Source: Salinimicrobium sp.
GTDB lineage: Archaea; Thermoplasmatota; Poseidoniia; Poseidoniales; Poseidoniaceae
Assembly: GCA_964228865.1 (NCBI GenBank)
Contig: CAXRAI010000064.1
Span: forward strand, 5,863 to 69,862
Reading direction: 5' to 3'
Length of the DNA: 64,000 nt
The notes below the pieces were generated by a model that had not been told where the DNA came from, made no database searches, and saw only the letters and a program-made list of their open reading frames with translations. Below, piece after piece: positions 3,641-32,579 of this stretch; position 1 is the stretch's first letter, and every line of letters starts with the position of its first letter. The position numbers and the translations under genes were made by a program.

Positions 3641-6600
3641 ATGAACCAAACGGCTCAACACGAAGCACCCTCATCGCTTGAGGTGGTTCAGCAGAACACC
3701 CTCTCCCGCACGTCGGTCGGGTTGCAACCGGTCACCGTGACACGGAACGAGGCGCTGGAGCGTTTTTCTCAAGTCATCATGTACGGCGTGGCGCTCGTTT
3801 TCATCTGGGGCGGCATCCTTTCCTTGGCCTTCGCAGAAGGGGCCTCTGAACTGAATTTCCTCGCCCTCTTTGTGGGCGGTGCTGTGTCGTCAGGCATGGC
3901 GATGTTCATGATTGAAATCCGCGTACGCGGAGGCCAACAAGAGCTGGATCAACCTCAGGGTTACCTGCTTGGCCTGGCCTTCTTTTTCATGGCCATTGGG
4001 ATGTTGTGGGGCACACGGTTCTTGGCGGGTTGGCTCAGCGCAGACCCGATCAGCCTCAACGTCTTTGTCGAGGGCAATTCAAGCGGGGCTTGGTCCATCG
4101 ATGCCCAAAATTGGCGGGCCGGACCCAACACCATCCTGCTCCAGACGGTGGGAACGATTGCTCTGGTCATGGGACAACGTCGTCTCCTCTCCCGCTACAC
4201 GGGTTCCCTCGATCTCGGGTGGGCGGTGATGGTGTTCACGCCCATCGCTTTGCTGTGGGTGGGCATCGGCACCTGGACGCACTGGTCCGGCGAGGCCTTT
4301 GGCTGGCAACTTGGGCTGGCCATGGTGGTGTTGTGCGGTCTGTCCATGCACATGAGCGTGCAGTCTGACGTGTCCTACACCTTCGTCATCTCAGCCATCA
4401 CGACCAGCCTGCTTCCTCTGGTCTACCAACTGAACATCGACGAAGTGGTCGTCGATGGAAGCGAACAACTCGCCGCGTTCAGCATGCTGATTCCGCTCAT
4501 TTTCCTCCAAGGTTGGTTCGCCAAGGACGCCCGTCTTCGACGTGAGTTGGTGGAAAGCATCTCGTGGGCCATGGTTGGGATTGTGATCATCGTGATGCTC
4601 ATCCTCTTCCCGTGGGATGGCGCAGCGGGCCCCTCCCATCTCGTCTTCCTCGACATGACGGTATCGAGCGTGCTTGGACCTCAGGCTGCCGAGATTTTGA
4701 CGCCAGGGGTGCTGCTGTGGGGCGCCTTGCTCTTCGGCTACTTCCCTGCCGTGCATGCGCGGCGAACGCCCGCGATGCCCATTCTCCTTGCGGCCACCCT
4801 CTGGACCTTCTCAGGGGATGCCGCCGACCTTCCATGGCTGATCGCCATCAGCACGGCGGTGTACATGCTTGGCTACGCCGATGCGACCCGGCCATGGGTG
4901 GCGCAAGCCACGATGGCCGCGCTCGCCATGTCGGCGGTGGTTCGGGGGACCCTCGTGGACGCCGACGTGTTGGCTCCGGCCCGCGCAACCGATGAATTGC
5001 TGCCGGGCATCGTTCCTGCAGCCCTGCTGATGCTTGCTTTCCTCGGCAAGCAACGCGGCCTTTTGCCCGCACTCGCTCCCGTGGCCGTGATTGGACTCAT
5101 CGTGGTGACCCCGACCTTTGCAGATCTTCTCGGAGAAAGCGCCGTCCTGGGTTGGGTCGTGGCGCTCCTGCCCTTGGTGATGTGGCAAATCGACCTTCGG
5201 AAGTTGGCCTCAAAGGACATGACGGACCTTGCCGCTGTGTCCTACCAAGGCGCTTTGGCCATGTTGGTGCCGGCGGTTCTTGCCTCCACTGGCCGTTTGA
5301 CCCTCGGCGAGGGGACGGAAACAGAAGTTCTGCTGATCGTGGCGGTCGTGCTCTACGGCCTGTCGCTGGTCGAACGCTCCAATCAGGTTGGGCTTGGTGG
5401 CATGATCACCCACTTCGGGACGGGCGGCCGCCCGGTTGAGGATGACTCCAAGGCCATCGAAGCCGGAACTCCCCTCGACCAAGTCGGGTTGATGCTTTCC
5501 ATCGTGATGATGGCACAAGCAGCCGGTGGCTTGGAACACGACATGCTCAGGTTGCTCTTCCCCGTGCTTCCTTTCCTGTTGTTGCTTGGTGAAGCGCTTC
5601 GCATGGATCGCATCACGTCAAGCGACCGTGCGTACGGCCTGCTCGTGGTGCTTGTGCTGGTCATGTGGCCGCTCATCAATGGAGAGGCGCCTTCCCGCGC
5701 GGACATTGACGACCAACTCTTCCTCGAACTCTGGGTGTGGGAGATCAGCCTCCTCGCGGTTCCGTTGATCGTGTTGGCGCGGAAGCGCAAGGATTTCGTG
5801 TACGACAGCGTAGAACTCGATCGCCTGACGCTGGTGCTGCTGCTGATCCTGGCTTCGCTCGATTTGTACATCGGTTTGCGGATGCCGCTTCTGTTTGTGG
5901 TGGTCGGTTGGCTGGCGCACCGTCATGGGAGGGACGGCATTTTGGCCCTCTCTCCACTGATTTGGTTCCTGAATCCGTTCACGGCCAACGAATCCTTCCT
6001 CTTCACGAGAACGCAGGCTTTCATCGAGGACGTCGGACTCCCGTTCAACGAATTGCTGGGGCTCAACAGCGTGGTGGGCGTGCTGATCATCGCCACGATG
6101 CTGGAGCCCGTCCGCGCTTCCATCATGGCCCGGCGTGCGGGTGAGGAAAATGCAGGCGGGGGTTTGGCCACCGCATGGATGCTCTTTGGGATCGTCGTTT
6201 TGGTGCCTGACATCACCTGGGCTGGGGCCTCGGTCATCGGCATCCTCATCCTTCGTCAGTGGTGGTTTGGCCGTCCCGACGCTGTGGTGTGGTTGCACGT
6301 TGCGATGCTGATGTGGCTGCTGATTTTCCTGCCCGCCACCATGGACTCGGCGGGCGATGCCGTGCAACTGGCCTGCGCGACCGTTGGCCTGTTGGCGATG
6401 CTGTTCACCTTCGGCCAGGACGCGCTGATCTTCCGGTACACTCCGCCGTTGGACGACGAGGCTCCCTTGCCGAAAGGCGAGTTTGATTTCTCGAGCGAAA
6501 AGGGCCGTCGCAACATCACCCAGACCCTTGAGGTCGGCAGCATTGTGTTGCTGCTGTGCACGCCCACCTTCGCGCTTGGCCTCGGTCATCTCGTCGGCGC

Positions 6601-15003: not shown

Positions 15004-18000
15004 ATGCGAAACATGACCACCATGCTTCTCGTGACGCTGCTGCTTGCCAGCCTGCTCGCGGGAATTCCAACCAACGAACTTGACACCGAGGACACCATCG
15101 AACACACCAGCGCACGATCTGGTGCTGACATCGACATCCTCGGCATCACCCAACCGTCCGAAACGAGCTGTACCGCGGCAGGCTGCCGCGACGAATTGCT
15201 CGTCGGTGAGAGCACCACCTTTGAGGTGGTCATGAAGAACATCGGCACCGGAGACGTGGAGGACATGACCTATTCCTTGGACATCTACCTCACCGATTCC
15301 ACCAAGACCCGCGGCCTTTTGGCCAAGGATTCCACGGGCCAGGACCTCTCTTGGACCAACGAAGTGGCGGTTTGTGACGACGCTGCCTCCTGTGACGAGA
15401 CCTCGTTCGCGGCCAACACCCTCTACAAGGGCGGTGCTGCCACCCTCACCCAACTTGGTGCAGACATCACGTGGACCCCAGACGTTGGTGAGTACCTTGT
15501 TGTCGTGTCCGTTGACTCCGACCAGGACACCGATCCAGCCAACGACGAGGAAGAAATCTACGTCGTTGTCCGCGACTACACCGACATTGGTGTTGACCTC
15601 TGCTGGACCGACGGCGCCGGTGTGTGCGTCGAAGGCGACCGTGCTGTCGGAACCGGCACCGAGTCCCGGCAATTCCTCCTGACCGTGACCGCTGACGGCA
15701 GCCAAGAATTCAACCCCCGCGAGGTCAACGTGAGCGTTGAACTCGACGGTTTCGCTTCCGCCAGCGGCGGTGGCTTTGACCTCAGCGTTGATGGAGAGGA
15801 CTGGCTTGTTGTGGCCGGCAACCCACAAACGGTTGAGGTCTACCGCAACGTCACCACGGACACCGGCACCGATGCTTCGCGTGCTGTGCTGGCCTACCAG
15901 ACGGCGTGGACCATGAGCGGCCAAGTTACCCCTGACGACGGCGGCTACTCCATCGATGCTCGTGTCATTGACTACACCCTCTACGGTCAAGACCCGACCT
16001 GCACCGAGACTTGGGTCGAAGGTGGCGAAGACCCCGAAACTCAGACCGAATTCTCCAGCGACAACCAGTGTGAGTTCCAGGAGACCAACGACGACTATTC
16101 CCGCACCGACTCGGACGACATCTACGGATTCAGCGCCCTCTTCCACGACATTCGCATCCAGACGCTCTCCGTCGCTCAAGGCTACAGCGCAGACGGCTCT
16201 GGAGAGCCAACCTCTGTGGTGCAAGACGGCATGGATCTCGACCTGCGCGTGGGCCCCACCCTTCTCCACGCCAACGTGGGTCACTTCGGCTCTGACGTCA
16301 ACAAGATGGTGGACTGGAACGTTGTGTTTACCGTGACGGATCCCAACGGTGTCGAGACCACCTACAATGCGGACGACTGCCCCACTGGGCTTGCTCCCGC
16401 TTACACCCACAAGCTCCTCGGTACCTTTGGTGGTCAAGGCACGCCTCAAGACGCAGACGTGTTCGGTTCCGCTTGTGTGATGCTGAACAACGAAGCAGTG
16501 CTCGGCGTTGGCGAGTACACCTTCGAAGCCAACCTCAACTTCCTCGGCCTCTGGGACAACTCGGCTGACCGTCTTGACGAATCGGTCACGGACGAGAAGG
16601 CTTCGAACAACCGCAAGGTGATGACCCTCGATGTGGTGAACAACCAGCCCAGCGTGCTTTCGATGACGATGTTCAACACCGGTGACCTCATTGTCTCGCA
16701 AGAATCCCCGCTTGAGTTCGACGTCCTCGCCTTTGACGTGGATTGTGTGGCCGGGGACTGCCTGACCTACACCTGGGCCATCAACGACGAGACCCTCGGC
16801 ATGTGCGGTGGCGTGGGCGCGATCGGTGCACAGTGCACCTTCCAAATCCTGCCCGAGCACCTGCCCAGCCCCCGTGTGGCCGTGACCGTCACCGACGACA
16901 ACGGCGCATCCACCTCGGATTACATGGATCTGACCATCTGGAACGACGTGACGGCAGAATCCACTGCGGCTGACAGCGGCATCACCATCGCCTACACCGT
17001 GCAGTATGCGAGCACTTCGCCCTACACCATCACCGCGACCGACTCCGACATCAGCAGCCACGCCGGCATGGACCTGCCTGGATACACCGGTCAGTATGAC
17101 GCCGTTGCTGCGGTTGATTTCGCACCCGGTGTTCTTGGGTCCATCGATGCCAGCGGTGTGCTGAGCCACGGCATGACCTTCACCGTCCCCAAGTCCCTGT
17201 TGGGTTCGGCGAACGAAGGCAGCATGTGGTTCAACCAAGGCAGCATGTACCAACTTGTCGACGGCACACCTGCCGACAGCGACAGCGACCCGACCATGTC
17301 TGTGTTCACGTGGGACTTGCCCGCAACTGAGAACACCTTGACGGCGGGGACCTTCGTCCTCTTTGGCGGTTCCCTCGAAGAACCCGTGGCTCCGAACGCT
17401 GGAATCACCGGCTTCTCTGCGCTCGCCGGTGAAGGTGGCACGCTGGTCATGAACTGGGACGTCACCGACACCATGTCGCTCGGCGAGGTCTTCATCATGG
17501 AAATCTGTGACCACGCGAACGACGCCGACTGCATGAACGCGGTGGTGAAGACCTTCGCTGACAGCGTGAAGACCTACACCCACCCCGGAATCTCCACCGT
17601 TCACGGCACGGAGTACATCGTGACCGTTGAAGTGTGCAGCGATGACGGGTTGTGCAACACGCAGATCGGCACCGGAAACGTCACGGCCGACAAGGAAGTT
17701 GACGGCGACGGCGCCATGACCAACCTCATCGCTCAAGCCAGCGAGGACGGTACCATGTGGACCATGACCTGGACCACCACGGGCGACACGTCGGACATCG
17801 ACAGCTGGCGCATCTGCTACAGCACCAACAGCGACGTTGCTTCGATTCCAATCTCCGGCGAAAAGTGCACGGACGTTGCGGCCGCAACGGCCACGACGGT
17901 CGATGTGATGCAGCCGACCTTCACCGGCACCGAGACATACTATTTCGTGGGTGTCGCTGTGGACGACCTTGGCAACGACCGACGTGCTTCTGACGCGGCC

Positions 18001-18207
18001 ACCGAGGTGTTCTACAAGCGCGACGCTGACTTCACCAACAACGATGACGGCAACGGCACCGTTGGTGAAGACGTCAGTGGCGAGAGCGAACTGCCCAGTT
18101 GGACCCTGCCCGCGATTGGCGGTGTTGTGGTCGCAGCCATCGTCGTTGGCGCCATCATCGTCACCCGAGGTGGCGGCGGCGGCGGCGACAAGGATTGGGA
18201 TTACTGA
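15004..18207 (+). CDS. Acidic cell-surface protein with CARDB/Ig/Fn3-like domains and C-terminal anchor
   Basis: N-terminal signal peptide; CARDB-like segments (FEVVMKNIGTG, DTDPANDEEE); paired Cys; LPSW-TM-RGGGGGGDKDWDY terminus; strongly C-ending codons. Confidence 0.85.
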   Translation: MRNMTTMLLVTLLLASLLAGIPTNELDTEDTIEHTSARSGADIDILGITQPSETSCTAAGCRDELLVGESTTFEVVMKNIGTGDVEDMTYSLDIYLTDSTKTRGLLAKDSTGQDLSWTNEVAVCDDAASCDETSFAANTLYKGGAATLTQLGADITWTPDVGEYLVVVSVDSDQDTDPANDEEEIYVVVRDYTDIGVDLCWTDGAGVCVEGDRAVGTGTESRQFLLTVTADGSQEFNPREVNVSVELDGFASASGGGFDLSVDGEDWLVVAGNPQTVEVYRNVTTDTGTDASRAVLAYQTAWTMSGQVTPDDGGYSIDARVIDYTLYGQDPTCTETWVEGGEDPETQTEFSSDNQCEFQETNDDYSRTDSDDIYGFSALFHDIRIQTLSVAQGYSADGSGEPTSVVQDGMDLDLRVGPTLLHANVGHFGSDVNKMVDWNVVFTVTDPNGVETTYNADDCPTGLAPAYTHKLLGTFGGQGTPQDADVFGSACVMLNNEAVLGVGEYTFEANLNFLGLWDNSADRLDESVTDEKASNNRKVMTLDVVNNQPSVLSMTMFNTGDLIVSQESPLEFDVLAFDVDCVAGDCLTYTWAINDETLGMCGGVGAIGAQCTFQILPEHLPSPRVAVTVTDDNGASTSDYMDLTIWNDVTAESTAADSGITIAYTVQYASTSPYTITATDSDISSHAGMDLPGYTGQYDAVAAVDFAPGVLGSIDASGVLSHGMTFTVPKSLLGSANEGSMWFNQGSMYQLVDGTPADSDSDPTMSVFTWDLPATENTLTAGTFVLFGGSLEEPVAPNAGITGFSALAGEGGTLVMNWDVTDTMSLGEVFIMEICDHANDADCMNAVVKTFADSVKTYTHPGISTVHGTEYIVTVEVCSDDGLCNTQIGTGNVTADKEVDGDGAMTNLIAQASEDGTMWTMTWTTTGDTSDIDSWRICYSTNSDVASIPISGEKCTDVAAATATTVDVMQPTFTGTETYYFVGVAVDDLGNDRRASDAATEVFYKRDADFTNNDDGNGTVGEDVSGESELPSWTLPAIGGVVVAAIVVGAIIVTRGGGGGGDKDWDY

Positions 18208-18854: not shown

Positions 18855-21800
18855 ATGACAATGTTGGGAATGACGAACAAGAAGAAGACCGCTATGGGTG
18901 GCATCGGCATCGCCGTGCTGCTCACGTTGCTGATGGCCCTGACCCCGATGACGGGGATCGTGGGGAACCCCATCGACGACAACGTTTTGGCGGCAGAGCA
19001 AAACCAGGTTGCCGAAGAAGACATCTTCGCGCAGCCCGAGAAACTGGAACCTGTGGACCTTGGTTTCGCTGACAGCAGCGAAATCATGGGCGCCCGAGAT
19101 GCGAACATGAAGACCTTCCGCAATGCGGACGGGACCTTCACGCAGATCGTCTCGGACGAGCCCCTCCACTACGACAACGATGGCACCTGGAGTGACATCG
19201 ACCTCAACCTGAAGGCCACGGCGTTCGGTTGGGAAGTTGTCGAGAACACCTTCAACTCCGCCTTTTCGGCTGAAGTTGCCAACGGTGTTGTGATTCAGCC
19301 AAGCGAGTGGGTTGACCCGATCATGACCGGTCTCAACCCGACCCTCGTGGTGATGGACGAATCCGGCACGAGCCACACCCCATTCGAGGCGCCTCCGGCG
19401 ACCTCTGAAGTCACGGTGGGCGGCAACACCATCCGTTACCCCATCGCGGAAGGCTTCGACCTCGATTACGAAGTCAACACCTTCCAAGTGAAGCAGAACC
19501 TCGTGATTCGCGAGCGCCCCATCATCGATGAAGGCGCGCACTGGTTCGGCTTCTCTGAGGCCATGCGCCTCCCCGCCGGTCACGCCCTCTACAGCGGCGA
19601 GGTCATGGTCGGTACCGACCTGGTCCAGACCGACGGGCACCTGGAGATCCGTAACATGGAAACCGGCGAACTGTACGCCGAGATCCCCTCGCCAATGGTC
19701 ATTGAGCCAGGCGTCGAAGAGCCTTACTTCGGGACTTTCTTCGTGATGGCCCAAGGCCCCATGGTCTTCCTGACCACGGCCGTTGAGACCGCGTGGCTCA
19801 TGGACGACGAGCGGGTGTTCCCGCTCGGGCTTGACCCCACGATCACGGTGACCAGCGCCGGTGGCGGTTACTGTTACATCTCCTACAACAACTGCTACAA
19901 CAGCAACTACCGTTACATGTACCACAACTCGTACGGCGGGAAGTCCAGCAGCACCTTCCGCCCGTACTACTTCTACACGCCTTGGCACAAGTTCACCTTC
20001 ACGAGCAGCAACGCCCTCCCAACCGGGGCTTCTCTGGACAAGATCGAGTACAAGGAATACGTGAACTACCACTACTCCTACCTCTCCAACAGCAAGGTCG
20101 ACTATGACATCAAGGTCATGGAAGACTGCGGTACCTCGCGACCTGCGACCTCCGCGACCGGCAGCGCGCCGACCAGCGGCTACTACTACTACCAAACCTA
20201 CAGCGGGTACACGATGGGCTCCCCCACCTGCAGCGGCGCCATCAGCACCTCGTACTTGACGAGCGGCTACGGCGGTACTGCCCAGAAGGCGATGATCATC
20301 TCCGCGGTCCACTCCGCTGGCGTTGCCATGGACGAGTCCGACCACGGCACCGGCTGGAAGAGCGCCACCTTCTGTGACTCCACCGGCAGCGTGTCCTGTT
20401 CGTCCTCGACGCAGGCCGGTTACATCTGGTCCGCGCTCAACGGCACGTCCACCGTCGGTATCTCGAAGTCCTTCGACAACTCCGGCATCGGAACCACCGG
20501 AACCAACTCCGGTACCCGCCAATACGCCTACAACCGTGCCTACACCAGCGGTTCGTCGAACAGCTACATCGCTCTGACCTACTCGGGCGGTACCGACAGC
20601 GACGCCCCGACGGCCACCTTCGGCGAGTACGACGGCATCACGTCCTACATCGAGGGCGAGCGCACCTTCTTCATCGGTCTGTCCGACACCTCCGGTGTCG
20701 ACACCACGAGCGGTAACGAACCGACCCTGTACTACGCCATCAACAACGGCTCCTACACCTCGGTGTCCGCCACGACGATCGGAACGTGCACCACCTCCTC
20801 GACGATCTGCCAGTTCAAGGCGCAGACTGCCGACATCAACGCCGGCGATTACGTGACCTACTACTGGTGGTACCAAGACCTGAACGTCGACAGCACCGGT
20901 GCCTCCGACCCCAACGAAGGGTACACCCCAGCGTTGACCGGTACGCAGACCACCCCGACGCCGTTCTGGTTCTTTGTCGACGACGTCAACAACGCCGGCG
21001 ACGACAAGAAGATGGTCCAACTGTCGACCAAGGTCAACAGGGCCAACCTCTTCAGCCCAACCAAGTTCTTTGACGAGCAGATGACCTACTTCGACCAGAG
21101 CGACGAGTACTACTTCGAGTTCGACACCTCCGACTGTGGCACCGGCGCCAGCCGCTGTTTCTACGTTGGATCCAGTTCCTCCAACTACTTCTACAACAAC
21201 TGGATCGTTCAGTGGCAGACCTCGACCTACCCTGCAACCTCGTCGTACAACACCGGCGGTTCCAGCCCCGGTAAGGTCTACCTCGATGACGACAATGGCG
21301 GCTACCTCAGCATCTCGGCCGATGACGGTCCTGGCATGAACCTCGTGTTCCTCTGGGACGGTGACGAGTTCGCCATGGTCGGTATCGGTACCGAACCCAG
21401 CATCGAGGAGCCTCTGGCCGGTGGAAGCACCGCCTCTCAGGTCTCGACCTACGGGTACACCGCCGCCCACCGCTACGTCGTCCCCGGTGACATCACCGGT
21501 GAGTTCGCGGGCTACTCTTGGAACGCCACCTACTCGAGCACCGGCCAGAACGTCTTGTGCGCGGGTACCAACGGATGGACGCACTTCCTGCGCTCCTCCT
21601 CCGGCAGCCCAAGCTGTTCCTCTGGTTACTACTACGTGTACAACACGAACTACAAGTGGAACGGATTCGCCCTTGGTGCGGGTTACTACGCCCGTACGGG
21701 TGCCGGTGCAGCCGTGACGTACGACGTCATGAAGATCGCACCAGAGCCCGACACCTACGCGCCGACGATCGTTCACGATGGCCTTGCTGACTCCTACGCT

Positions 21801-24800
21801 CGCACGCGTACGGTGACTGCGACCATCAGCGACGGCGGTTCCCCGCCTGCTGGACTGAACGTCAGCACCTCGGCCGGAACGGGCCCAACGCTCTACTACA
21901 GCGTCAACAACGGCACGACCACGTCCATCCGCATGTCTCCAGTCGGCAACACCGACGCACAGTGTGTGTTGGCAACCTGCGACTGGGCAGCTGACATCGC
22001 GAACCTGAACACCTCGGATTACGTTGAGTACTACATCACTGCTCAGGACGTCTCAACCGACGTGACCACGCCCAACTCCGTGCAGTCCTCGACGTCGAAC
22101 TTCGATGTTGGTGACCCCAACAAGATGTTCATCGTCGAGTGGCACGACATGGGCTACACCAGTGCTTACCTCTGCACCTATCAGGTGGTCTTCTACGACG
22201 TGACCAACGAGTTTGAGTTCAAGTACGACACCGGCTGTCAAGTCTACGTCGACTACTCCGCGACGGGCTACCAAGACCAGACGCGCTCGAAGGGTGAAAC
22301 CCTCCAGAAGGGTAACGGATGGTTGTACGGCTCCAACCCGTTCACCACCAACTACCGCATGCACACCTCCTCGACGAGCAACGGCCATGAGACGTTCTCC
22401 CCTGGTCTGACCGAGATCAAGAACTACGACACGGCCCTCAGCGGCAGCAGCAGCGGTACGCCCTACGGCTACTACTGTGCGTACAGCTGGTACTGGAACA
22501 CCTACAAGTCCAGCTGCAACGCTAACATCGACATGCCCGATGACTTTGACTTCGAGTACTTCGGCACCCTCTACGAGGGCACCGACTCGAACGACCGCAT
22601 CCGCCTTGGTCGCCAGGGCTACATGTACTTCATCGACAACGGTGCCACCAGCCTCGAGCGTGGTGTCTCCACGTGGAGCAGCAACTTCCCGAACATGCCC
22701 TACTCGGGCAACTCGGCCTCGCGCCCCGGCACCATTGCGCCGTGGTGGGGTTACTACACCTCCTACTACTGCTACGACAACACTGCGATTGACTGCAGCG
22801 TCCGCTACCGCACCATGCCGTACAACGGCAAGGGTACGGACATCGACGCCGACATCACCACGGACACCACGTGGGACATCGACGACAGCCCAATCCGCAT
22901 CAACCCGAGCAACGACTACCTGTCCATCTCTGCCGACCTCACCATCGAGCCCGGCGTCGTGGTCCAGGTGGCCAGCGGCAAGGGAATCTCCTTCGACGGC
23001 TCGTGCGACGAGATGAAGATCAACGGCAACGCCGCGAACCCCGTCCTCTTCGAGGGTCAAGCGGGTGGCGATTGGAAGGGCATGGCGTTCACCGCCGCTT
23101 GTGCTTCCGGCACCGACGACCGACACGAGTTCTCTCACGTCGACTTCCGCAACACCAGCGATGCGGCCATCGCTGCGGGTAGCCGCCACGGCAGCTCCCC
23201 CAGCACAAACGCCAACGTGGGCAACTTCACCATGAACGACGTGACTTTCACGAACGTCGCTGCGGCCTTCCAGCACGGCTCTGGCCAAGGCACGGTCGTC
23301 GAAATGACGAACTTCGCCGTTGATGGCGCGGACAACGCGTGTTTCAACTTCGCTGAGGACACCGTCGCCATTCTGCGCGAGGGTTCCATGAAGAACTGCA
23401 ACACCAATGGACAGAGCTGGGGCGGTGCGATCGTCAACTACCCAGGTTCCAACGCCGGCAGCCTCTTTGTTGAGAACGTCACCGTCACGAACTCCTACGT
23501 GAACTTCATCGACGTTGATTTGCAAGACGTGACCGTCTCCAACGTGAGCGTCAGCAACTCCGCCGCTCAGACCGGTGTGGCCATCGATGCCATGCACGGC
23601 ACCAACGCCGACGTGCACCTCTACAACGTCAGCGTGACCGACTACGCCAACAGCGGTTTCAACGCCGTGTCCAGCATTTACATGGACGACGTGGACTTCG
23701 GCAGCGCCGACCTTTGGATCACCCCCAACGGATGGGGTTCCTCCGCCGTCGGCCCAGTGGGTGACAATGCGGTCATGAAGAACGTCGATTCCGGTGACAT
23801 CACGATGCAGCGCATCCACTTCGGTGTCTTTGAGGACATCACGGCGGGCGATGTGTCGATCTCCGGCACCACGACGCACACCGAGACCGAGGTTTGGAAG
23901 AACCTCGACATCGGTGACCTGACCATCAACGGTGGTGCATGGAGCCTTATCCTCGAGAACGCGGACGTCAGCCGTCTGTACAGCTTCTCGACCTCGGCCA
24001 CGAACACCATCGTGATGGAGCAAGGCTCGAGCATCGACCACGACGATTCCTCTGTGGACGCCGTCTACGGTCGCAACTCCGACATCACCCTGGCGTCGGT
24101 CGCCATCACCTCCAGCAACATCGACGGCAGCAGCAACTACGTCGCCAAGGCCTCGTCGAACAGCGACATCGTCCTGATCGACGTCTCCTACGACGACGGA
24201 ACCGGCTCTTCCGACTGTGCGGACTCCAGCGGCGACACCTCCAACTGTCCGGTTGACGTTTCGTCCTCCGCGACCGTCTGGTACGGTGGCCTTGCTCAGG
24301 TCTCCCTTTACCGTGAGGCCCTGATCAACAACGTCGTGACCAAGGTCTACAAGTCCGGCCACAGCGTCCGGACCACGGTGATGGACACCTCGTCCAGCCC
24401 TGCGGCTGCCCTCTTCGAGATTGGAACCGCAGAGACCGACTCCTTGGGCATGGCCGAGGCATGGGTCGTCTCCGGTGACTCCAACGGCAACACCTACTCC
24501 GACCACCAGATCTTCGGATGGGGTGCTGCCGGTCAGAACGAGACCCTCCTCTCGTCGGCTTGGTACCCAAGCGGCGGCTTTGGTTTCGGTGACCAGATTG
24601 AGTTGCTCCTGCAACCCGCTCCGATCAACTTTGACCAGCCCAACATGGACTGCACCTGGATGTCCAACAACCAGACCTTCCAAGGCGCGGAATCCAGCCC
24701 AGGCGTCTACGTCTTCGACAGCTTCCCAATGACGCTGTCGGCTGACCTCGACATCAACGGCTGTACCCTCGTCATGATGGGTTCCGTGATGACCGTTGAC

Positions 24801-27800
24801 GCCTCGGCGACCAACAGTCCGGTTCTGACCATCAGCAACGGTGGTACGCTCCTCGTGAACGTCTCCTCCGACACGGGTGGCAAGGGCACCATCAAGGCAC
24901 AGAGTGCGTCCTATGGTGTGCGTCTGGATGTCGCGGACGGAACGCTTTCCGTCGCCGGTGGCATTCTGAAGGATCTCCACCAAGACTCCTCGACGATGTC
25001 TGCACTTTACATTGGAAGCGACGGTGCCTTGGTGCTCTCCGAATCCGCTGAAGTTTACGGCGCACAAGCGTCCAACGACGACATGGCGACGGTCAAGATC
25101 GACCGTGGAAGCGTCAGCATCAGCGACTCCAGCATCATCAACACCGCTGGCACGGGTACCGCCCTGTGGATCGAAGGATCCGCCGCCTCCGTGGACAACA
25201 TTGTGGTGAAGAACGGTGCTGTGGGCATCATGTCGAAGAACGCGGCGCCTCAGATTGACGGCTTCACGTCCACCGACAACACCGTCGGTGTCGACATGGA
25301 GGGTGGCATGAGCCTCCCGACCATCTACCGCTCGCCCTCGCTTGCTGGCGTGAGCCGTGGATGGCAGACCTACGACATCGACCTCTCGGCGTTCATCGGC
25401 AACAGCGACTACCTCCAGGTGGGCGCCAACTCGATCTACGCCGGTGGTAACGCTCACCCGTACTACAACTACTGGACGAGCAAGTACTACTTCATCACCG
25501 ACCGCTACCGCATGGAGTTGACCGACAACAACGGCAACACCTGGAACATCAGCGCTGGTGACACGGGTTACTACCCATACAGCTCGAGCGACCCCAACGA
25601 GGGCGTCGGCGATGTCGGCACCTACCAAGGTGGCAAGGGCGGTGTGCCCCAGTGGGACTGCAACTACTACGGTGTGGACTATGGCCCCAACCGTGTTGGG
25701 ACCAGCGGTTACTACGGATACGGCCAGACTGGCGTGTACTGGTACTTCACCGGTAACTCCGGAACCTACCCCAACTACTACACCAAGCCCGCTCAGTTCG
25801 GCTTCTCTTGGGAGAGCATCGACGGCGTGACCCCGACCGGATCCTACGCCTACTACCCATACCACTACTGGGGCTACGGCACCTACAGCTGGGCCGGTTG
25901 GAGCGGCGTCATGGTTCCCCCCGAGGGCTTTGTGAGCTCCTACAACTACAACGTCTGTTTGGACTATGCTTACTCGTACTACATGAACAGCGGTCAGGGC
26001 GCTCGCGTGACCTTCCCAATCGTGGACATCTCCGCCAGCAACCTGACCTCGGCTACGATGTACATCGATGTCCTGCACAACCGTGCAAACAACTACCAGG
26101 ACCGGTACGAGTTCGTGGCCCGCTCTGGAAACGATCCATCGGACCTCGGCGACTACAAGCGTGAGTCCGGTACGCCCTTGTTCAAGGACGGCACCATCAA
26201 CGGCGCTGACGTCGGTGTGGAAATCGGTGGCGACTTCGCCGCTGGTCACCTCGACACCGTCGAGATCAACAGCCCGAACGACGCCGGTATCATGGTTGAC
26301 GGTTCCACGATGGCGAGCGCCGACGGCGTCACCGTCAACGGTGGCGACTACGGTGTCCTCATCGCCAACGGCGCTGCTGGCAGCATGGACCTCGATAACA
26401 TGGATCTGGATTCCCAGACCGTGGCCGGTATGTACTACGTCAAGGACTTCGGCGGTGACTTCACCGGTACCGTGTCCAACAGCGCAGGTGCAGCCATGAA
26501 GTTCGGACCAAGCACCACGAAGGACCTTGCCTACGACACCGTTGACTTCAGCGGCAACAACGTTGGCTTCGACCTTGCAGGTAGCGGTGGATTCACCTTC
26601 GTCGACTCGACGATGGGCAGCACCTCCAACGACTTCAAGATCAGCGGTTCGTCCGTGGTCGAGTTCATCGAAGGAACCGTGGACAGCACAAGTGTTGACG
26701 TCACCGGATCTGGTGAGTTCAACCGCATGCGACAAATCGACGTGACCATGACGGCCGATCAGAGCGACGGCAACGGCGCTGTTGGTGTGTCCGATGTCGC
26801 CGTCGTGCTTCGTAACTCGGAAGGGGCTACGGCCTCGTCCGGAACCACGGACACGTCCGGTATTGCGCAGGACCTGACCTTCACGACGATTGTCGTGGAC
26901 GTTGGTGGCCTCCACACGCAGGACTTGAACGGTTACACCGTGTCCTCTGTGGCCATGGTGGACTACTACTGGACCTCCTCGAGCGACAACAACGCGGACT
27001 TCCGATACGTCGAAGAAGGCATCAGCGTCAGCGACACGAGCGGCAACACCGCCACGGTCGAGCTCATTGACGAGTTTGACCACCGTGTGTGTTACTACTT
27101 CACCTCTGCCAGCTACAACTACGTGAACCGCTGTGCGAACGGTTGGTCCTCCACCGGCTCAAGCCGTGTGTTTAGCAACGGCCTTGAGGAGCACGGCTAC
27201 TACTACGGCTCCGTGGACGGTACCGACTTCACGGGCGACGCGGTCATGGTCGACGCGCCCAACTGGTACCTCGGTGGCGACACCTACGAGTGGAACAGCA
27301 CGACCCTGATTTGGACCGGCTCTTGGGCCACCACTGACCTGTCGCGCATGATTCCGCGCTACAACCAGGAAGTCAACATGTACGTGCACGACTCGACCAT
27401 CATGAGCATGTCCGTGAACGACGACGGCGACCTTGCCGGAATCGACTTCGGTTACATGTACTACTCGATGAACGTGGACGCCAACAACACCGACTTCAAC
27501 GGCATCGCTTCCATCATCGGCGCGATCGGTTACGGCTACTACAACGAGTACGAGCTGGACTTCTTCAACGTGCGAAACTCGACGATCACCCACTACAAGG
27601 GCTGGTCGCCGTTGAACAACGCGATTCAGGTCCAGGACATGTGCATGCGCATCAACGGCGGTGAAGGCAACATCATCGAGAACAACACGTTCATCGATTG
27701 TGCTGTGGGCATCGAAATGACGCGCTCTCCGTACTATTGGAGCCACAGTTCCTACGAGATCGGTGCGGACAACATCACCATCCAGTACAACACGTTCGAA

Positions 27801-30800
27801 GACGGTGGCGAAACCTCCGACATCCGCTTCTACCCGAACGCGAACGCTGAAGGTGCAATGGTTGTCGGCAACACCATCAACAACACGCTTGGTGGAAACT
27901 CCGCCATCTCGGCATGGGACAGCACCATCGAAGACCTGACGATCAAGGACAACACCATCCGCGGCTTCACCGAGGACGGCATCTACCTGAACGACATCAA
28001 GGGCTTCGAAGTGAGCGGTAACGAGATGTATGGACCCGGTGAAGACTCCGCTGCGATTTACGCCAACGGTGGCTACGGTGACATCATGGACAACGTGATT
28101 GTCGACTCCGACATTGGTATCCTCATGTCCGAGGCTTCCCAGCCCGTCGGCACCACGACCAACCTGTGCCAAATCGACGGCAACTACGGCTACGGCGACA
28201 GCTGCACCTTCAACTTCGCTGGCAACGGTACCACCCTTGTCATCGACATTGAGACCGACAGCTGGGGCTACGAGATCTCCCTTGAGATCACCAAGCCTGA
28301 CGGCACCAAGGACACCTGGAGCACCTACACCTTCAGTTCCAACACGGCCTACAAGCCTCTGACGACGTACACGGCTGCCGGAACCTACAGCATCTCTGTC
28401 TCCGACAGCTGGGGCGACGGTGGAATCACCTTGGACGCCTACTACACGTCGGCGCAGAGCGGTGTCTCCGGCCCCGTCATCAGCGGCAACGACATCTCGA
28501 TGTCGCCCGGCTCCTCATTGATGGCCACGACCGGTATCCTCGTTGAGGACTGCACGGGTACGGGCATCAACATGGCCGACAACTTCGTCGCCATGCCCAC
28601 CGACGCCGTCCTGACCGACGGCTGTGACGTCTACGATGAGAACTCCGAACTCCTCGGTGGCGACCAAGCCTCGACGTCCGGATTCGTGAGCACCAGCGGT
28701 GACACGGTGACCCTCAGCGGCACCACGATCTCGGGCTACGAGACCGGTGTGGAATCCGACGGTGGTGTCCTCAGCATCATCGACAACGCCACCATCGGCG
28801 GTGAGAGCGAAGGTGTTTGGGCCTACGACACGCAGTTGTTGATCAACTACGCCGAACTCGACGGTGGAGCCTCCGGTGTGGGTCTCCTCCTCGAGGACAG
28901 CGGTGAGGCCCTCATGTACTGCGTCGACCTTGAAGGTGCGGCGGGCATGGAGATCTACAACACGGACTTCCGCTACAACATGGGCGACGTGAACGCTGAG
29001 AGCGCCATCTTTGTCTCGGACTCGGTCGGTAAGATCGAGAACTTGACGTGGACCTCTGCGGTCACGACGCAAATCGAGTTGGACCAGGGCGCGATGGTGA
29101 CCTCCATCGGCCAGGACTTGACCCCGTCCCTGCTCATCGTGCCCACGGGTACGATGATCGACGAGGCCAACCTCCTCGACATCGCCGCCCAGCACTTGAG
29201 CGCACCCGTCACCTCTGAGGTCGGCGTCTCCATCGTGAGCACCGACGGCCTCCGAGCGGCCTACATCTCGCCGGACTTCCAGTCCGACGCGATGGCCGTT
29301 GACGGCGACAACGCGGACTGGGTCGGCTCCGAGCTGAACCCATCCGATGATGCGATGCCCGGCGAGTTGACCGAGAACTTCTACGTGACCTACACGGAGA
29401 ACGACGACCTGTACGTGGCCATTGACGGCCTCGACCTGTCCACCTCGGACCTGTTGGTGTACTTCGACGTCACCGGTGGCGGTTCTGACGAAGGCTACGA
29501 CTACGGTGCCTCCGGCGCCCACGACTTGCCCTTCGAGGCCGACTTCGTCTACTGGGCTGAGTCTGACGCGAGCAACGACCTGTACGCCTACGGCTTCCTC
29601 GGCTGGGGCGTGACGTCGCTGTCCGCCGACAACGTTGACGCTGACTTCTCTGGCGACTTCGCCGAGATCATGGTGCCCTTCAGCCGCCTTGGCGGCATGC
29701 CGAGCTCCGTGCGCATGATTGCCATCGTGCAGAGCGACAGCAGTGCTGACGTCAGCGAGGTCTATCCCGACCAAGCCATGGACACGACGACCACCCTCCA
29801 GGACTTCAGCGAGTACTACACTGTGGTGCTCGGTGCGAACAACCTGCAGGACGGCGTGCTCGAGGACGAGGTGCTCACCTACCGCACCTTCCTTGGCAGC
29901 AACGTGCCATCGGCCGCGAAGGAGTACGACGTGATGATCAAGCACACCAACGACGACTGTGCCGTTGACTGGGCGACCGAAGATGCGGTCAACATGTCCG
30001 ACAACGTTGCCCTCACGATGGACATCCAGCGTGCGTGCCCAACGATCGGCAGTTCCCTCGCGAACATCACGGTGAGCGAAGACTCCGCGGCGTACACCGT
30101 CTCGTTGACCTCCTACGCCTCTGACGTGCAGGACGCCGCCGGCGACCTCACGTGGGCTGTTGACGAAGGCGAGACTGTGGTGGTCTACGGCAACACGCCG
30201 ATGCCCGCCGAGGGTCTGGTCAGCTGGACCCTTTCGGGTCACGACCTCAGCATCACCCCGACCGCCGATCAGTTCGGTACGGTGCAGTTCAACTTCACCG
30301 TGACCGACAGCAACGGCCTGACGGACGAGCGTTCCATCCACTTCATCGTGGAGAACGTCAACGATGCTCCCGAGATTTGCCAGCGCGACACCAACGGCGA
30401 CTGTGTGGACACCGTGATGCTCTTCGGAGACGCGGCGCACGTGAACTACATCCCTGAGGACAGCCTCGTGGGTGGCCAGAGCGTGTCTGTGATCCTCTCG
30501 GACCGTGCCAACACCGGTGCAAGCGCACTGAACCTCATCAAGGACCAGGCGAACGAAAACGATCCGTCCCGCCAAATCTACACGTGGGGCGTGTCCGTTG
30601 ACGAGGCTTGCCCGCTGTTCACGGTGGGCATGGTGGACGACACCTTCCTGACGGTGACCGGCAAGTCCGGCATGGCCTTCGAGGCCGGCGGTTCGTGCGA
30701 CATCACGCTGACCCTCGCCGACGACGGTGCTGAGAACCAGAACGCCGTTGACGAGATCATCACCATCAGTGTGGTGCCCGTGAACGACGCTCCGACCATC

Positions 30801-32579
30801 GACGACTGGAACCTCCAGACCGGCGACACGATCAACTGGGCCTCGAACGATTCCTCGCTCATCTACGGCGAGTGGACCATCCGTGTGCTTGAGGACACCG
30901 AAGACGCCAGCGAACTGACCTTTGACCTGTCCGCGCTCAAGAACGACGTCGACCACGACCTCGGCGACCTCACCTGGTCGCTGCTGCCGAAGCTCGACGA
31001 CACCGGCCGCGCGTACTGCGCCTACACGAACTACTTCTCGTTCACCTTCAACGGTGACGAGCTCGTGTTGGACCTCGTCAAGGACGCCACCACCAACGCT
31101 CCGATCAACCAGATCGACTACCTCTACAACGGCGGTGTGCACCAGGTCAACCCGGCCGGCAAGGGCTTCTGTGAGATGGAACTCTACCTCACGGACAGCG
31201 CTGCTGCTCCGACTGGCTTTGCCTACGACCTCAACGACAACGGCTACATCCAGCAGACCTCGCTGAAGCGCGACGTGAAGATCATCGTGCAGAACGTGGC
31301 TGAGCAGGTGCCCGACTACTACTTCGACGCCACCACTGGCTTCGACTTCAACGGCGTGTCCAACGTCATGGACGGCACCTGGGTGCCTGTGACCGTGACC
31401 GTGACCGCTGGCGGTGACGAAGGACCCTACAACCACGACAGCATGCTGATGATCACCTTCCAGAGTGACGGCCACACCGAGACGGAGCGCGACGCCATCT
31501 ACATCGACGCGCCCGCCTACGGCCAGACCGTGACGGTGGACTCCGAAGTCTTCGTGAAGGCGGTCACCACGACCGTTTGGGTTGAGATGGACGTCAAGAC
31601 CTGTGTGGACGAGAGCTGCGACATGACGAAGTCGATCGACGACCGCTTCATCGCTGACGAGCCAGCCAGCCACGGCAAGGTGACCCTCCCCAACAGCCTC
31701 GACTACTGGGCCGAGCCCGGTTTCTATGGCTCTGAGGACGGTACGGACAGCATCCGACGACCGGTGCTCGAAGACAAGGACTGGTGTAACAACGTGATGT
31801 ACAACACCCTCACGGGCAACATCGACGTGTGCGACCAAGCGGACTACGGCCGAGGATCCTTCGAGATCACCGACCAGGACCTGCCTGACGTCGTGCGCAC
31901 CATCGGTGCCTCTGGTGTTCCGTCGTTCGCTCCGAGCATCGTCGCCGTTGCCCTCGCGGGCATCGTCGTCGGCCTCCTCGCTCTGGCGGGTCGCCGCGAA
32001 GAAGACGAAGAGGAGGAGGAAGAGTCCTCCCCACGCTTCGTCGACGACGAAACGGCCGTGAGCCCGGTCATTGCGACCATCCTCATGGTGGCGATCACCG
32101 TCGTGCTTTCCGGTGTCATCTACGTCTGGGCGTCCAGCCTGGCCGAGACCGACGTCAAGGGTGTGCCTCGCATCACCTTCGACATCGAGGACATCGACGC
32201 GTACAACGCTGAGACCGGACACTGGAAGATCGAAGTGCAGCAGTCTGAGACCGAACTGGCCACCCAGGCCGTCGAGATCAAGATTTTCGCGGCCGAGATT
32301 GACGGTGTTTACGAGGTCAAGATGGCCGACTCCGACGGCGTCTACGGCTTCTCACCCTTCAACAGCGACAGTCTGGTGACCTTCTCCGACTCTGTTCGGT
32401 CCGAAGGCGACGACAAGGTTTCGACCTTCTTCGTCGGTGACACGATCTTCGTGCGCACCCACCTGGCGGACGGCACGCCCTTGACGGACGTGACCATCCA
32501 GCTGTCCTACGCACCTGAGGTTGGTCAGGGCGCACTGCTCCGTACCTGGAGCGGTCTGTCCTACGACCTCGCTGCGTGA
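18855..32579 (+). CDS. Giant (4,574 aa) surface adhesin-like protein fused at its C-terminus to an archaeal type IV pilin
   Basis: KKK plus hydrophobic signal peptide; WapA/Rhs-like N-terminal module; nidogen-like, beta-helix, DOMON/CBM9-like and cadherin-like (VNDAP) segments; VPSF-TM-RR anchor; internal class III signal and pilin H-domain at 32058. Start may be 18861. Confidence 0.9.
   Translation: [4574 protein letters not shown]
32058..32579 (+). other. Embedded type IV pilin domain (predicted mature 173 aa) within the giant CDS
   Basis: [28 protein letters not shown] closely matches the conserved archaeal pilin H-domain (haloarchaeal PilA: [22 protein letters not shown]). Confidence 0.88.

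Follow-up and report, generated by a model that had tools for sequence, protein, structure and literature searches.

A type IV pilin module at the C-terminus of a giant surface protein conserved in Candidatus Poseidoniales

To our knowledge, class III signal peptides are treated as strictly N-terminal by prediction tools and by textbook models alike. Archaeal pilins of the Pilin_N/DUF1628 type (PilA1-6 of Haloferax volcanii; the filament 8fj5; Iho670 of Ignicoccus, 5kyh; the Cuniculiplasma filament subunit, 8rey) have an assembly helix that begins at an A/G↓VSPVI-type site (the arrow marks the cleaved bond) and a beta-sandwich head, and their signal is N-terminal, the leader comprising between a few and about 30 residues. 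Large surface proteins of the PGF-CTERM/ArtA type, such as the S-layer glycoprotein of H. volcanii, have at their end a short motif followed by a hydrophobic helix and a cluster of arginines. A pilin element of the first kind and an anchor resembling the second stand in a single protein encoded in a 64-kb stretch of contig CAXRAI010000064.1 (the window, meaning the whole stretch analysed), which comes from a metagenome-assembled genome (MAG; 84 contigs, 85% complete) of Candidatus Poseidoniales, or Marine Group II, which is among the commonest archaea of the surface ocean. The gene encodes a giant surface protein that continues, in the same open reading frame (ORF), into a first transmembrane helix (TM1), an acidic linker and a type IV pilin module. 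This module has the same helix family, type of site and head as the archaeal pilins named above, and, as with PilA1-6, several pilins of the genome have one conserved helix in common. Unlike in those pilins, the prepilin signal of the giant lies about 4,400 residues into the protein and behind a transmembrane helix, and its leader differs from theirs in being acidic.

The pilin module and its conservation

The gene is a single ORF (18855-32579, + strand) of 4,574 amino acids (aa), and the stretch from the anchor to the pilin has no stop codon (ORF list and translation). In a hydropathy scan of the whole protein only three hydrophobic segments were found (residues 17-35, 4361-4379 and 4405-4423); the predicted topology, based on there being only these three, is an N-terminal signal, an ectodomain outside the cell, TM1, a cytoplasmic loop, the pilin helix and a C-terminal domain again outside. 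The RR pair directly after TM1 is consistent with this topology. The predicted scissile bond is A4401↓V4402 (nucleotides 32057/32058), with 173 aa downstream of it. An earlier sequence-only reading of the window had proposed this layout: on re-reading of the ORF, its coordinates for anchor, arginine pair, linker and pilin all hold, the single open frame without a stop between anchor and pilin is confirmed, and its out-TM-in-TM-out topology follows from the presence of just three hydrophobic segments. Its statement that no internal start is usable is true of this genome, where the sole start-capable codon of the linker region is the GTG of the valine at +1.

The C-terminal module is a true pilin, as shown by profile hidden Markov model (HMM) scores above cut-off, a filament-subunit fold and a first residue like that of Iho670. 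The HMM scan that the sequence-only reading had called for gave 35-37.5 bits with Pilin_N (PF07790; cut-off 25.2) and 30-35 bits with TIGR02537 of NCBIfam (cut-off 20), both above the curated thresholds. The pilin fold that it had expected was likewise obtained when AlphaFold2 was run twice: TM1 was predicted as a helix, the linker as disordered and the pilin as a 27-aa helix carrying a beta-sandwich head (predicted local distance difference test, pLDDT, 85-97). A Foldseek search of the PDB returned nine matches with E <= 0.001 (1.6e-4 to 6.8e-4), all of them archaeal filament subunits, namely the Cuniculiplasma filament (8rey) and the archaellins 9eq7, 8rh5, 5z1l and 7ofq, with Iho670 (5kyh) at rank 10 (E 1.2e-3). 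In a sequence comparison, residue 1 of the solved Iho670 chain opens a VSPVIAT stretch, and the alignment with the 8fj5 pilin begins at VSPVIG, which puts the predicted cut at the starting point of known mature pilins. Set beside the usual description of an archaeal pilin, the module has the helix recognized by the HMMs, the cleavage motif (A/G at -1 after a charged leader) and the lollipop fold; the short-leader signal at the extreme N-terminus is missing, the site being at 4401/4402 of 4,574.

The fusion is real and conserved, and chance falls far short of explaining its layout. In a six-frame search of 61 related genomes, the anchor-linker-pilin stretch was found within open frames of 4,350-5,055 aa; the hits come from members of the same genus, from twelve genera of the family and from both other families of the order, and all three Poseidoniales families are thus represented. 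Layout, codons and site conservation were read from 43 orthologous C-termini of these relatives, and all 43, including those of the single-contig genomes G023 and G033, have the same layout in frame: [VS][PAT]SF[AI]P[STG], a helix of variable sequence (about 21 aa), RR, 18-30 aa of acidic character, a (D/E)-x-prepilin site, a helix with (M/L)VA(I/V)TVVL and a further 145-170 aa. Fusion and linker are thus kept in three families, which answers the question, left by the sequence-only reading, of whether orthologues might always be split.

In a collection of 5.8 billion proteins, 253 clusters match the last 250 aa of the giant, nearly all of them from proteins of about 4.5-4.6 kaa, and some bear the database names “type IV pilin” (NCBI) or “FlaG/FlaF family flagellin” (JGI). 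Twelve full-length homologues are collinear with the giant at about 50% identity over the whole length, the pilin module being the best conserved part (0.70). A HMMER search of 1.84 billion representatives found full-length matches to the head domain exclusively at the C-terminal end of long proteins or of fragments cut by contig ends; its head-only matches lie inside shorter paralogues described below, and its matches at protein positions 10-20 cover the helix only. Split orthologues were considered and rejected: short database “pilins” with the head of the giant are contig-edge fragments or gene calls that start at a methionine of the linker, and in one of them (L050) the open frame extends upstream without interruption.

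One entry is a true stand-alone copy. On an ENA contig of 1,370 bp (L049), the gene at 727-1287 (P0127) has an ordinary leader, MQNENRNEEA↓VSPVI, preceded by an AT-rich upstream region, and in its mature part it shows 94% identity to the C-terminus of the giant P0017. The contig has a coverage of 1.4x. The gene may have arisen by recent excision or recombination, or the contig may be chimeric through misassembly, and the entry is therefore given little weight.

In the 43 C-termini, 23 of the first 30 helix residues are invariant and the other positions take two to five residues, while the invariant sites use 2-6 synonymous codons each and synonymous codons are saturated. Alanine at -1 is invariant and uses all four of its codons, nine different residues occur at the hypervariable position -2, and -3 is always acidic (D or E). 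The linker is acidic and 18-30 aa long, with a hydrophobic residue at -7 in every case; TM1 is variable in sequence yet always hydrophobic, and the RR pair is conserved. As judged from these alignments, the predicted cleavage site is under selection.

Three stand-alone pilins are encoded in the same genome, two of which (on C76 and C31) match the first 17 helix residues of the giant exactly. The leaders of these two end in NDEA↓ and EGDA↓, and relatives show NEQA↓; position -2 is therefore free in stand-alone pilins too. A [DE]-x-A↓VSPVIAT consensus is common to the giant and to the stand-alone pilins of the lineage. Gene conversion was rejected as the cause of the helix identity, since only 68-72 of the 90 bases of the helix DNA are identical between giant and stand-alone genes and the longest identical runs are of 14-20 nt. 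The coordinates of the gene and of its parts are collected in Table 1.

Table 1. The giant gene and its parts, in window coordinates
Feature	Position	Strand	Evidence
Whole gene (precursor: giant surface protein, membrane hairpin and pilin)	18855..32579	+	ORF list, translation, collinear homologues
N-terminal Sec-type signal or anchor (KKK, then hydrophobic)	18855..18974	+	Segment 17-35, conserved in homologues
Ectodomain, about 4,300 aa, acidic, Ser/Thr/Gly-rich, with Big_9, tandem-95 and beta-helix-like parts	18975..31880	+	
Juxtamembrane strand, consensus LPxVVxTIGAS	31881..31913	+	Conservation profile, 95 homologues
VPSFAPS motif, candidate variant of the archaeosortase A PGF motif	31917..31937	+	Conservation, alignment to PGF homologues
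TM1 and RR, stop-transfer anchor	31938..31991 (TM1), 31992..31997 (RR)	+	Kyte-Doolittle peak 2.53, AlphaFold helix
Acidic linker of 20 aa, would-be cytoplasmic prepilin leader, ending D-E-T-A	31998..32057	+	AlphaFold: disordered
Pilin assembly helix (30 aa), beginning with VSPVIAT	32058..32147	+	PF07790 and TIGR02537 above cut-off
Pilin head (beta-sandwich) and stop codon	32148..32579	+	AlphaFold pLDDT 85-97, Foldseek

The ectodomain gives 29 bits with the Pfam model Big_9 and a tandem-95 match (NCBIfam) below cut-off, and homologues carry PF05048/PF13229; its role is probably adhesin-like. The N-terminus of the giant was also considered as a second class III signal and rejected, residue -1 being valine in most orthologues. 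The genes around the giant are an ABC/FtsX pair, a gene for a surface protein of 1,067 aa, and genes for a HAD hydrolase, the small subunit of DNA polymerase and CinA.

The first anchor and the C-terminal cassette

The VPSFAPS heptad and the LPxVVxTIGAS strand are better conserved than TM1, and in 36 diverse homologues the V, S, F, second P and last S of the heptad are invariant. Two distant homologues have instead ATPGFVPS and APGFLPS, each followed by a helix and RRR, and BLASTP aligns their PGF with the PSF of the giant. The heptad also occurs at a true C-terminus: another protein of the genome (C61:1-882) ends in GLVPSFAPSAGLVLLVGLLCGILARRPRD-stop, that is VPSFAPS, a transmembrane segment and RRPRD, and further proteins of the genome end in GLPSV or PVPSV followed by a helix and basic residues. 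An archaeosortase A (TIGR04125, 111.4 bits for a cut-off of 75) is encoded at C15:53604-54443 (L060 1462-2496, - strand) with the motifs ACTALQS and NIFRN, which hold the expected cysteine and arginine, and the same model exceeds its cut-off in 59 of the 61 relatives. A search with Exosortase_EpsH (PF09721) gave no match and is uninformative, since its positive control, H. volcanii, was missed as well.

From these comparisons, the first anchor looks like an archaeosortase-like signal. The sequence-only reading had spoken of a PGF-CTERM-type anchor. The likeness is strengthened by the alignment of PSF to PGF, the heptad at the end of the C61 protein and the archaeosortase A of the genome; class membership is not, as the PGF-CTERM HMM (TIGR04126) had no match on the window protein and stayed below its cut-off on every tail tested, including 6.8 bits for 24.5 in a distant homologue with PGF. 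The anchor is therefore called a PGF-CTERM-like variant and not a member. It further differs from PGF-CTERM/ArtA signals in its PSF motif and in being internal, with 193 residues after RR where such signals stand at the extreme C-terminus.

Although archaeosortase A is so widespread in Poseidoniales, the PGF-CTERM HMM detects no substrates for it. Other tails with candidate variant signals were observed in the genome, of the form [LV]PS[FVWI] + TM + RR and also GLPGPG + TM + RR (C61:1-882; C20:2-2818; C20:3737-4834). The 1,067-aa protein upstream of the giant (window 15004-18207, + strand), which is acidic and has no Pfam match, ends in ELPSW + TM + R + GGGGGG + DKDWDY, an anchor related to that of the giant.

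The C-terminal part of the giant is also found behind another ectodomain. Protein P0264 (2,785 aa) has only its last ~560 residues in common with the giant (33% identity, E 2e-65, BLASTP); the rest of its ectodomain, made of repeated beta-helix-like modules, is unrelated, and the C-terminal cassette is therefore portable. P0264 and P0265 (4,372 aa, on a 3.0-Mb contig) carry this same cassette with a canonical PGF motif.

A set of paralogues, which the sequence-only reading had not foreseen, is without the hairpin. These mini-paralogues of 416-707 aa (P0262, P0266, P0268, P0272 and P0273; G032:C26:72-1022, L054) were found in one of the 61 genomes (G032), beside a normal giant. They consist of a signal peptide, the last ectodomain module of the giant up to LPxVV, 10-25 acidic residues and the pilin head, have no VPSFAPS, TM1, linker or pilin helix, and end in thrombospondin-type-3-like repeats and an anchor of their own (GLPSIG + helix + RRE). 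That head and last ectodomain module are adjacent even without the hairpin argues for an interaction on the outer face, and by this sequence argument the pilin head probably interacts there with the last ectodomain module of the giant.

Proposed processing and its alternatives

The machinery that the sequence-only reading had proposed to look for elsewhere in the genome was located, as a candidate peptidase and as T2SSE/T2SSF systems. Peptidase_A24 (PF01478) was matched in only 2 of the 61 genomes, which reflects a problem of sensitivity; these hits led to a divergent homologue, a FlaK/PibD-like class III signal peptidase candidate at C83:14966-15946 (L051) with the motifs DHLDRRVPN and HGGADAKA (DxxxRRVPN and GGADAKA). 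This candidate is present in 49 of the 61 genomes, each of them with a type IV filament ATPase; the four genera devoid of such an ATPase do not have it, and in two genomes with an archaellum only (G047 and G059) it adjoins ArlI. Its distribution is as would be expected of a class III signal peptidase, its identity being that of a candidate. The genome has an archaellum operon (C45:27855-35366, with archaellins, ArlF/G-like genes, ArlH, ArlI and ArlJ) and two non-archaellum T2SSE + T2SSF systems (C16:41012-43576 and C80:38368-43388). Genera without the fusion (g16-g19 and g21) are also without both classes of non-archaellum ATPase. Published work on Marine Group II discusses the “flagella” operon only.

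The interpretation that we favour, with a confidence a little better than even, is that the class III peptidase cuts the protein, as a precursor, at A↓V, giving a giant anchored by membrane or lipid and a pilin able to join a filament. By its sequence, the protein has a Sec-type signal in front of the ~4,300-aa ectodomain and crosses the membrane at the archaeosortase-like anchor formed by VPSFAPS, the helix and RR; the acidic loop of 20 aa would lie in the cytoplasm, and the chain goes back into the membrane as a canonical archaeal prepilin, with the N-terminus of its helix inside and its head outside. The FlaK/PibD-like candidate would then cut A4401↓V4402 on the cytoplasmic face, as in stand-alone pilins. 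The 173-aa pilin so freed could enter the filament of the stand-alone pilins because the assembly helices match, probably as a low-copy subunit, with C16 or C80, the two non-archaellum type IV systems, as the presumed builder of this filament. The giant would be held on the cell by TM1, or by a lipid if archaeosortase A cuts at PSF. Synthesis as one chain would fix the ratio of giant to pilin and would place the head beside the last ectodomain module of the giant.

In a more elaborate version, which we put forward tentatively and regard as rather unlikely, the last ~560 residues (two membrane-proximal modules, the P(S/G)F anchor, the acidic loop and the prepilin) would be a portable sorting cassette that is cut twice, by archaeosortase A at PSF on the outer face, transferring the giant to lipid, and by the class III peptidase at A↓V on the inner face. 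With the freed head still attached to the last module of the giant, the pilus system could carry, position or tension the 4,300-residue adhesin.

Several points weigh against the cleavage model. No case is known to us in which a class III signal peptide is processed when it follows a long N-terminal extension, still less one of 4,400 residues, and the peptidase may refuse such a substrate. The candidate peptidase itself was missed by PF01478 and gives 23 bits with Arc_PepC_II for a cut-off of 29.9; the co-occurrence of the fusion with pilus ATPases rests on few independent losses; and no pilus genes were found adjoining the giant gene. The mini-paralogues keep the head without the helix, which suggests a role of the head independent of filament assembly, and the contact between the LPxVV strand and the head in the AlphaFold models is a low-confidence bridge of two residues, no confident contact being predicted.

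Among the alternatives, that the fusion is an artefact of an assembly chimera, a frameshift or a stop lost in one MAG has next to no probability left and was rejected on the 43 orthologues and 253 clusters: although the source genome is a fragmented and incomplete MAG, the frame is open in 43 independent genomes, some of them single-contig, and in hundreds of metagenome proteins, and the short stand-alone entries are contig-edge fragments, with the frame of L050 open upstream. The pilin might also be translated separately, from a methionine in the linker about 7 codons before the site, with the purine-rich Glu codons serving as ribosome-binding site. Codon -7 is indeed ATG or TTG in 18 of the 43 orthologues, across all three families, and is hydrophobic in all, and gene callers on short contigs start at this methionine (giving MVDDDAAVSPV or MSDDESAVSPV). 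However, in the genome studied and its genus this codon is TTC (Phe, 32037-32039) and the linker has no start-capable codon, 25 of the 43 orthologues lack such a codon at -7, start-capable codons are preceded by Shine-Dalgarno-like words no more often than the other codons are (9/18, for 14/25), and GAG is not enriched in the linker (fraction 0.42, for 0.54 elsewhere). Internal initiation is therefore not a conserved mechanism, and we hold it to be very improbable; the Met or hydrophobic residue at -7 is, from its pattern among orthologues, probably what is left of the start codon with which a formerly separate pilin gene began (M-x-D-D-E-x-A↓V).

The two remaining alternatives accept the fusion and dispute the cut or the pilus. 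The hairpin might remain uncut, the pilin module acting as a second anchor and as a docking device, with its helix attached to the platform of the pilus or to the filament base; the giant would then be positioned or tethered at sites of pilus assembly, or would cap or terminate the filament as its last subunit. This would agree with the lack of a precedent for internal class III processing and with the co-occurrence of the gene with non-archaellum ATPases; an N-terminally extended pilin could sit at the base of a filament, where by established filament geometry the N-terminus faces the membrane, and platform binding would explain the invariant helix residues equally well. It is nonetheless unlikely in our estimation, since an invariant alanine at -1 beside a hypervariable -2, within the [DE]-x-A pattern of stand-alone pilins, points to selection on a scissile site, the linker is disordered, variable in length and leader-like, and an acidic loop left uncut cannot enter the filament core. 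Alternatively, the module may descend from a pilin without having kept a role in pili, its helix being a plain second transmembrane segment and its head a partner of the last ectodomain module, for instance in ligand binding or envelope attachment. The mini-paralogues, which join that module straight to the head without VPSFAPS, TM1, linker or helix, speak for such an exaptation, as do the absence of pilus genes nearby and the fact that no head domain in a 50% representative library follows an ordinary N-terminal leader. But a plain transmembrane helix would not stay so conserved over 30 residues across the order while TM1 varies freely, nor be kept identical to the helix of stand-alone pilins; losses of the gene go along with losses of the pilus ATPases, and the mini-paralogues are rare, being present in 1 of 61 genomes, where a giant is encoded as well. 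Loss of the pilus role is accordingly judged quite improbable, and cleavage at A↓V is retained as the preferred model.

Comparison with known adhesin-pilin systems

A core gene conserved in abundant ocean archaea thus places a class III signal 4,400 residues into a protein. If the site is cut, prepilin peptidases can do more than is assumed, an entire giant protein counting as “leader”, and for the first time an adhesin and a pilin would be seen to come from a single precursor. Cleavage would further link archaeosortase and type IV filament sorting in one protein, and would offer a concrete entry, at the molecular level, into the question of particle attachment by uncultured Marine Group II cells. 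Until now, arguments about such attachment have drawn only on “flagella” genes and flotillins (PMC6461757, PMC6336850).

The sequence-only reading had called the architecture undescribed. Literature searches agree: neither a pilin in Marine Group II nor the giant-pilin arrangement is mentioned in genomics papers on this group (PMC6461757, PMC6336850, PMC6864105, PMC4511931, PMC9723583), and type IV filament systems of archaea were surveyed in 2026 (PMC13705601) with no mention of a Marine Group II pilin or of such an arrangement. The claim is to be restricted in that the databases of NCBI and JGI already label proteins of this kind as pilin or flagellin.

The joining of a pilin module to a large functional or adhesive module is known from bacteria, in PilB/PilC of Streptococcus sanguinis, CofB of enterotoxigenic Escherichia coli (ETEC) and GspK of the type II secretion system (T2SS). 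In these modular pilins the extra module follows the pilin, the class III signal is N-terminal and the whole protein enters the filament; the giant reverses this order, its large part preceding the pilin with a membrane hairpin between the two. The PilY1/PilC tip adhesins of Pseudomonas, Neisseria and Kingella, which go with a core minor-pilin complex, are, as proposed here for the giant, large Sec-exported adhesins functionally coupled to a low-copy pilin. Beta-strand augmentation has been described in such a system (PMC13711793), and the possible contact between the C-terminal segment of the giant adhesin and the pilin head resembles it. Unlike the giant and its pilin, the partners in these systems are separate gene products held together non-covalently, without a membrane anchor or a shared precursor. 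Were the doubly-cut cassette to hold true, an archaeosortase signal, which is normally discarded, would double as a prepilin leader, and the giant would be a one-gene archaeal counterpart of PilY1 together with the minor pilins.

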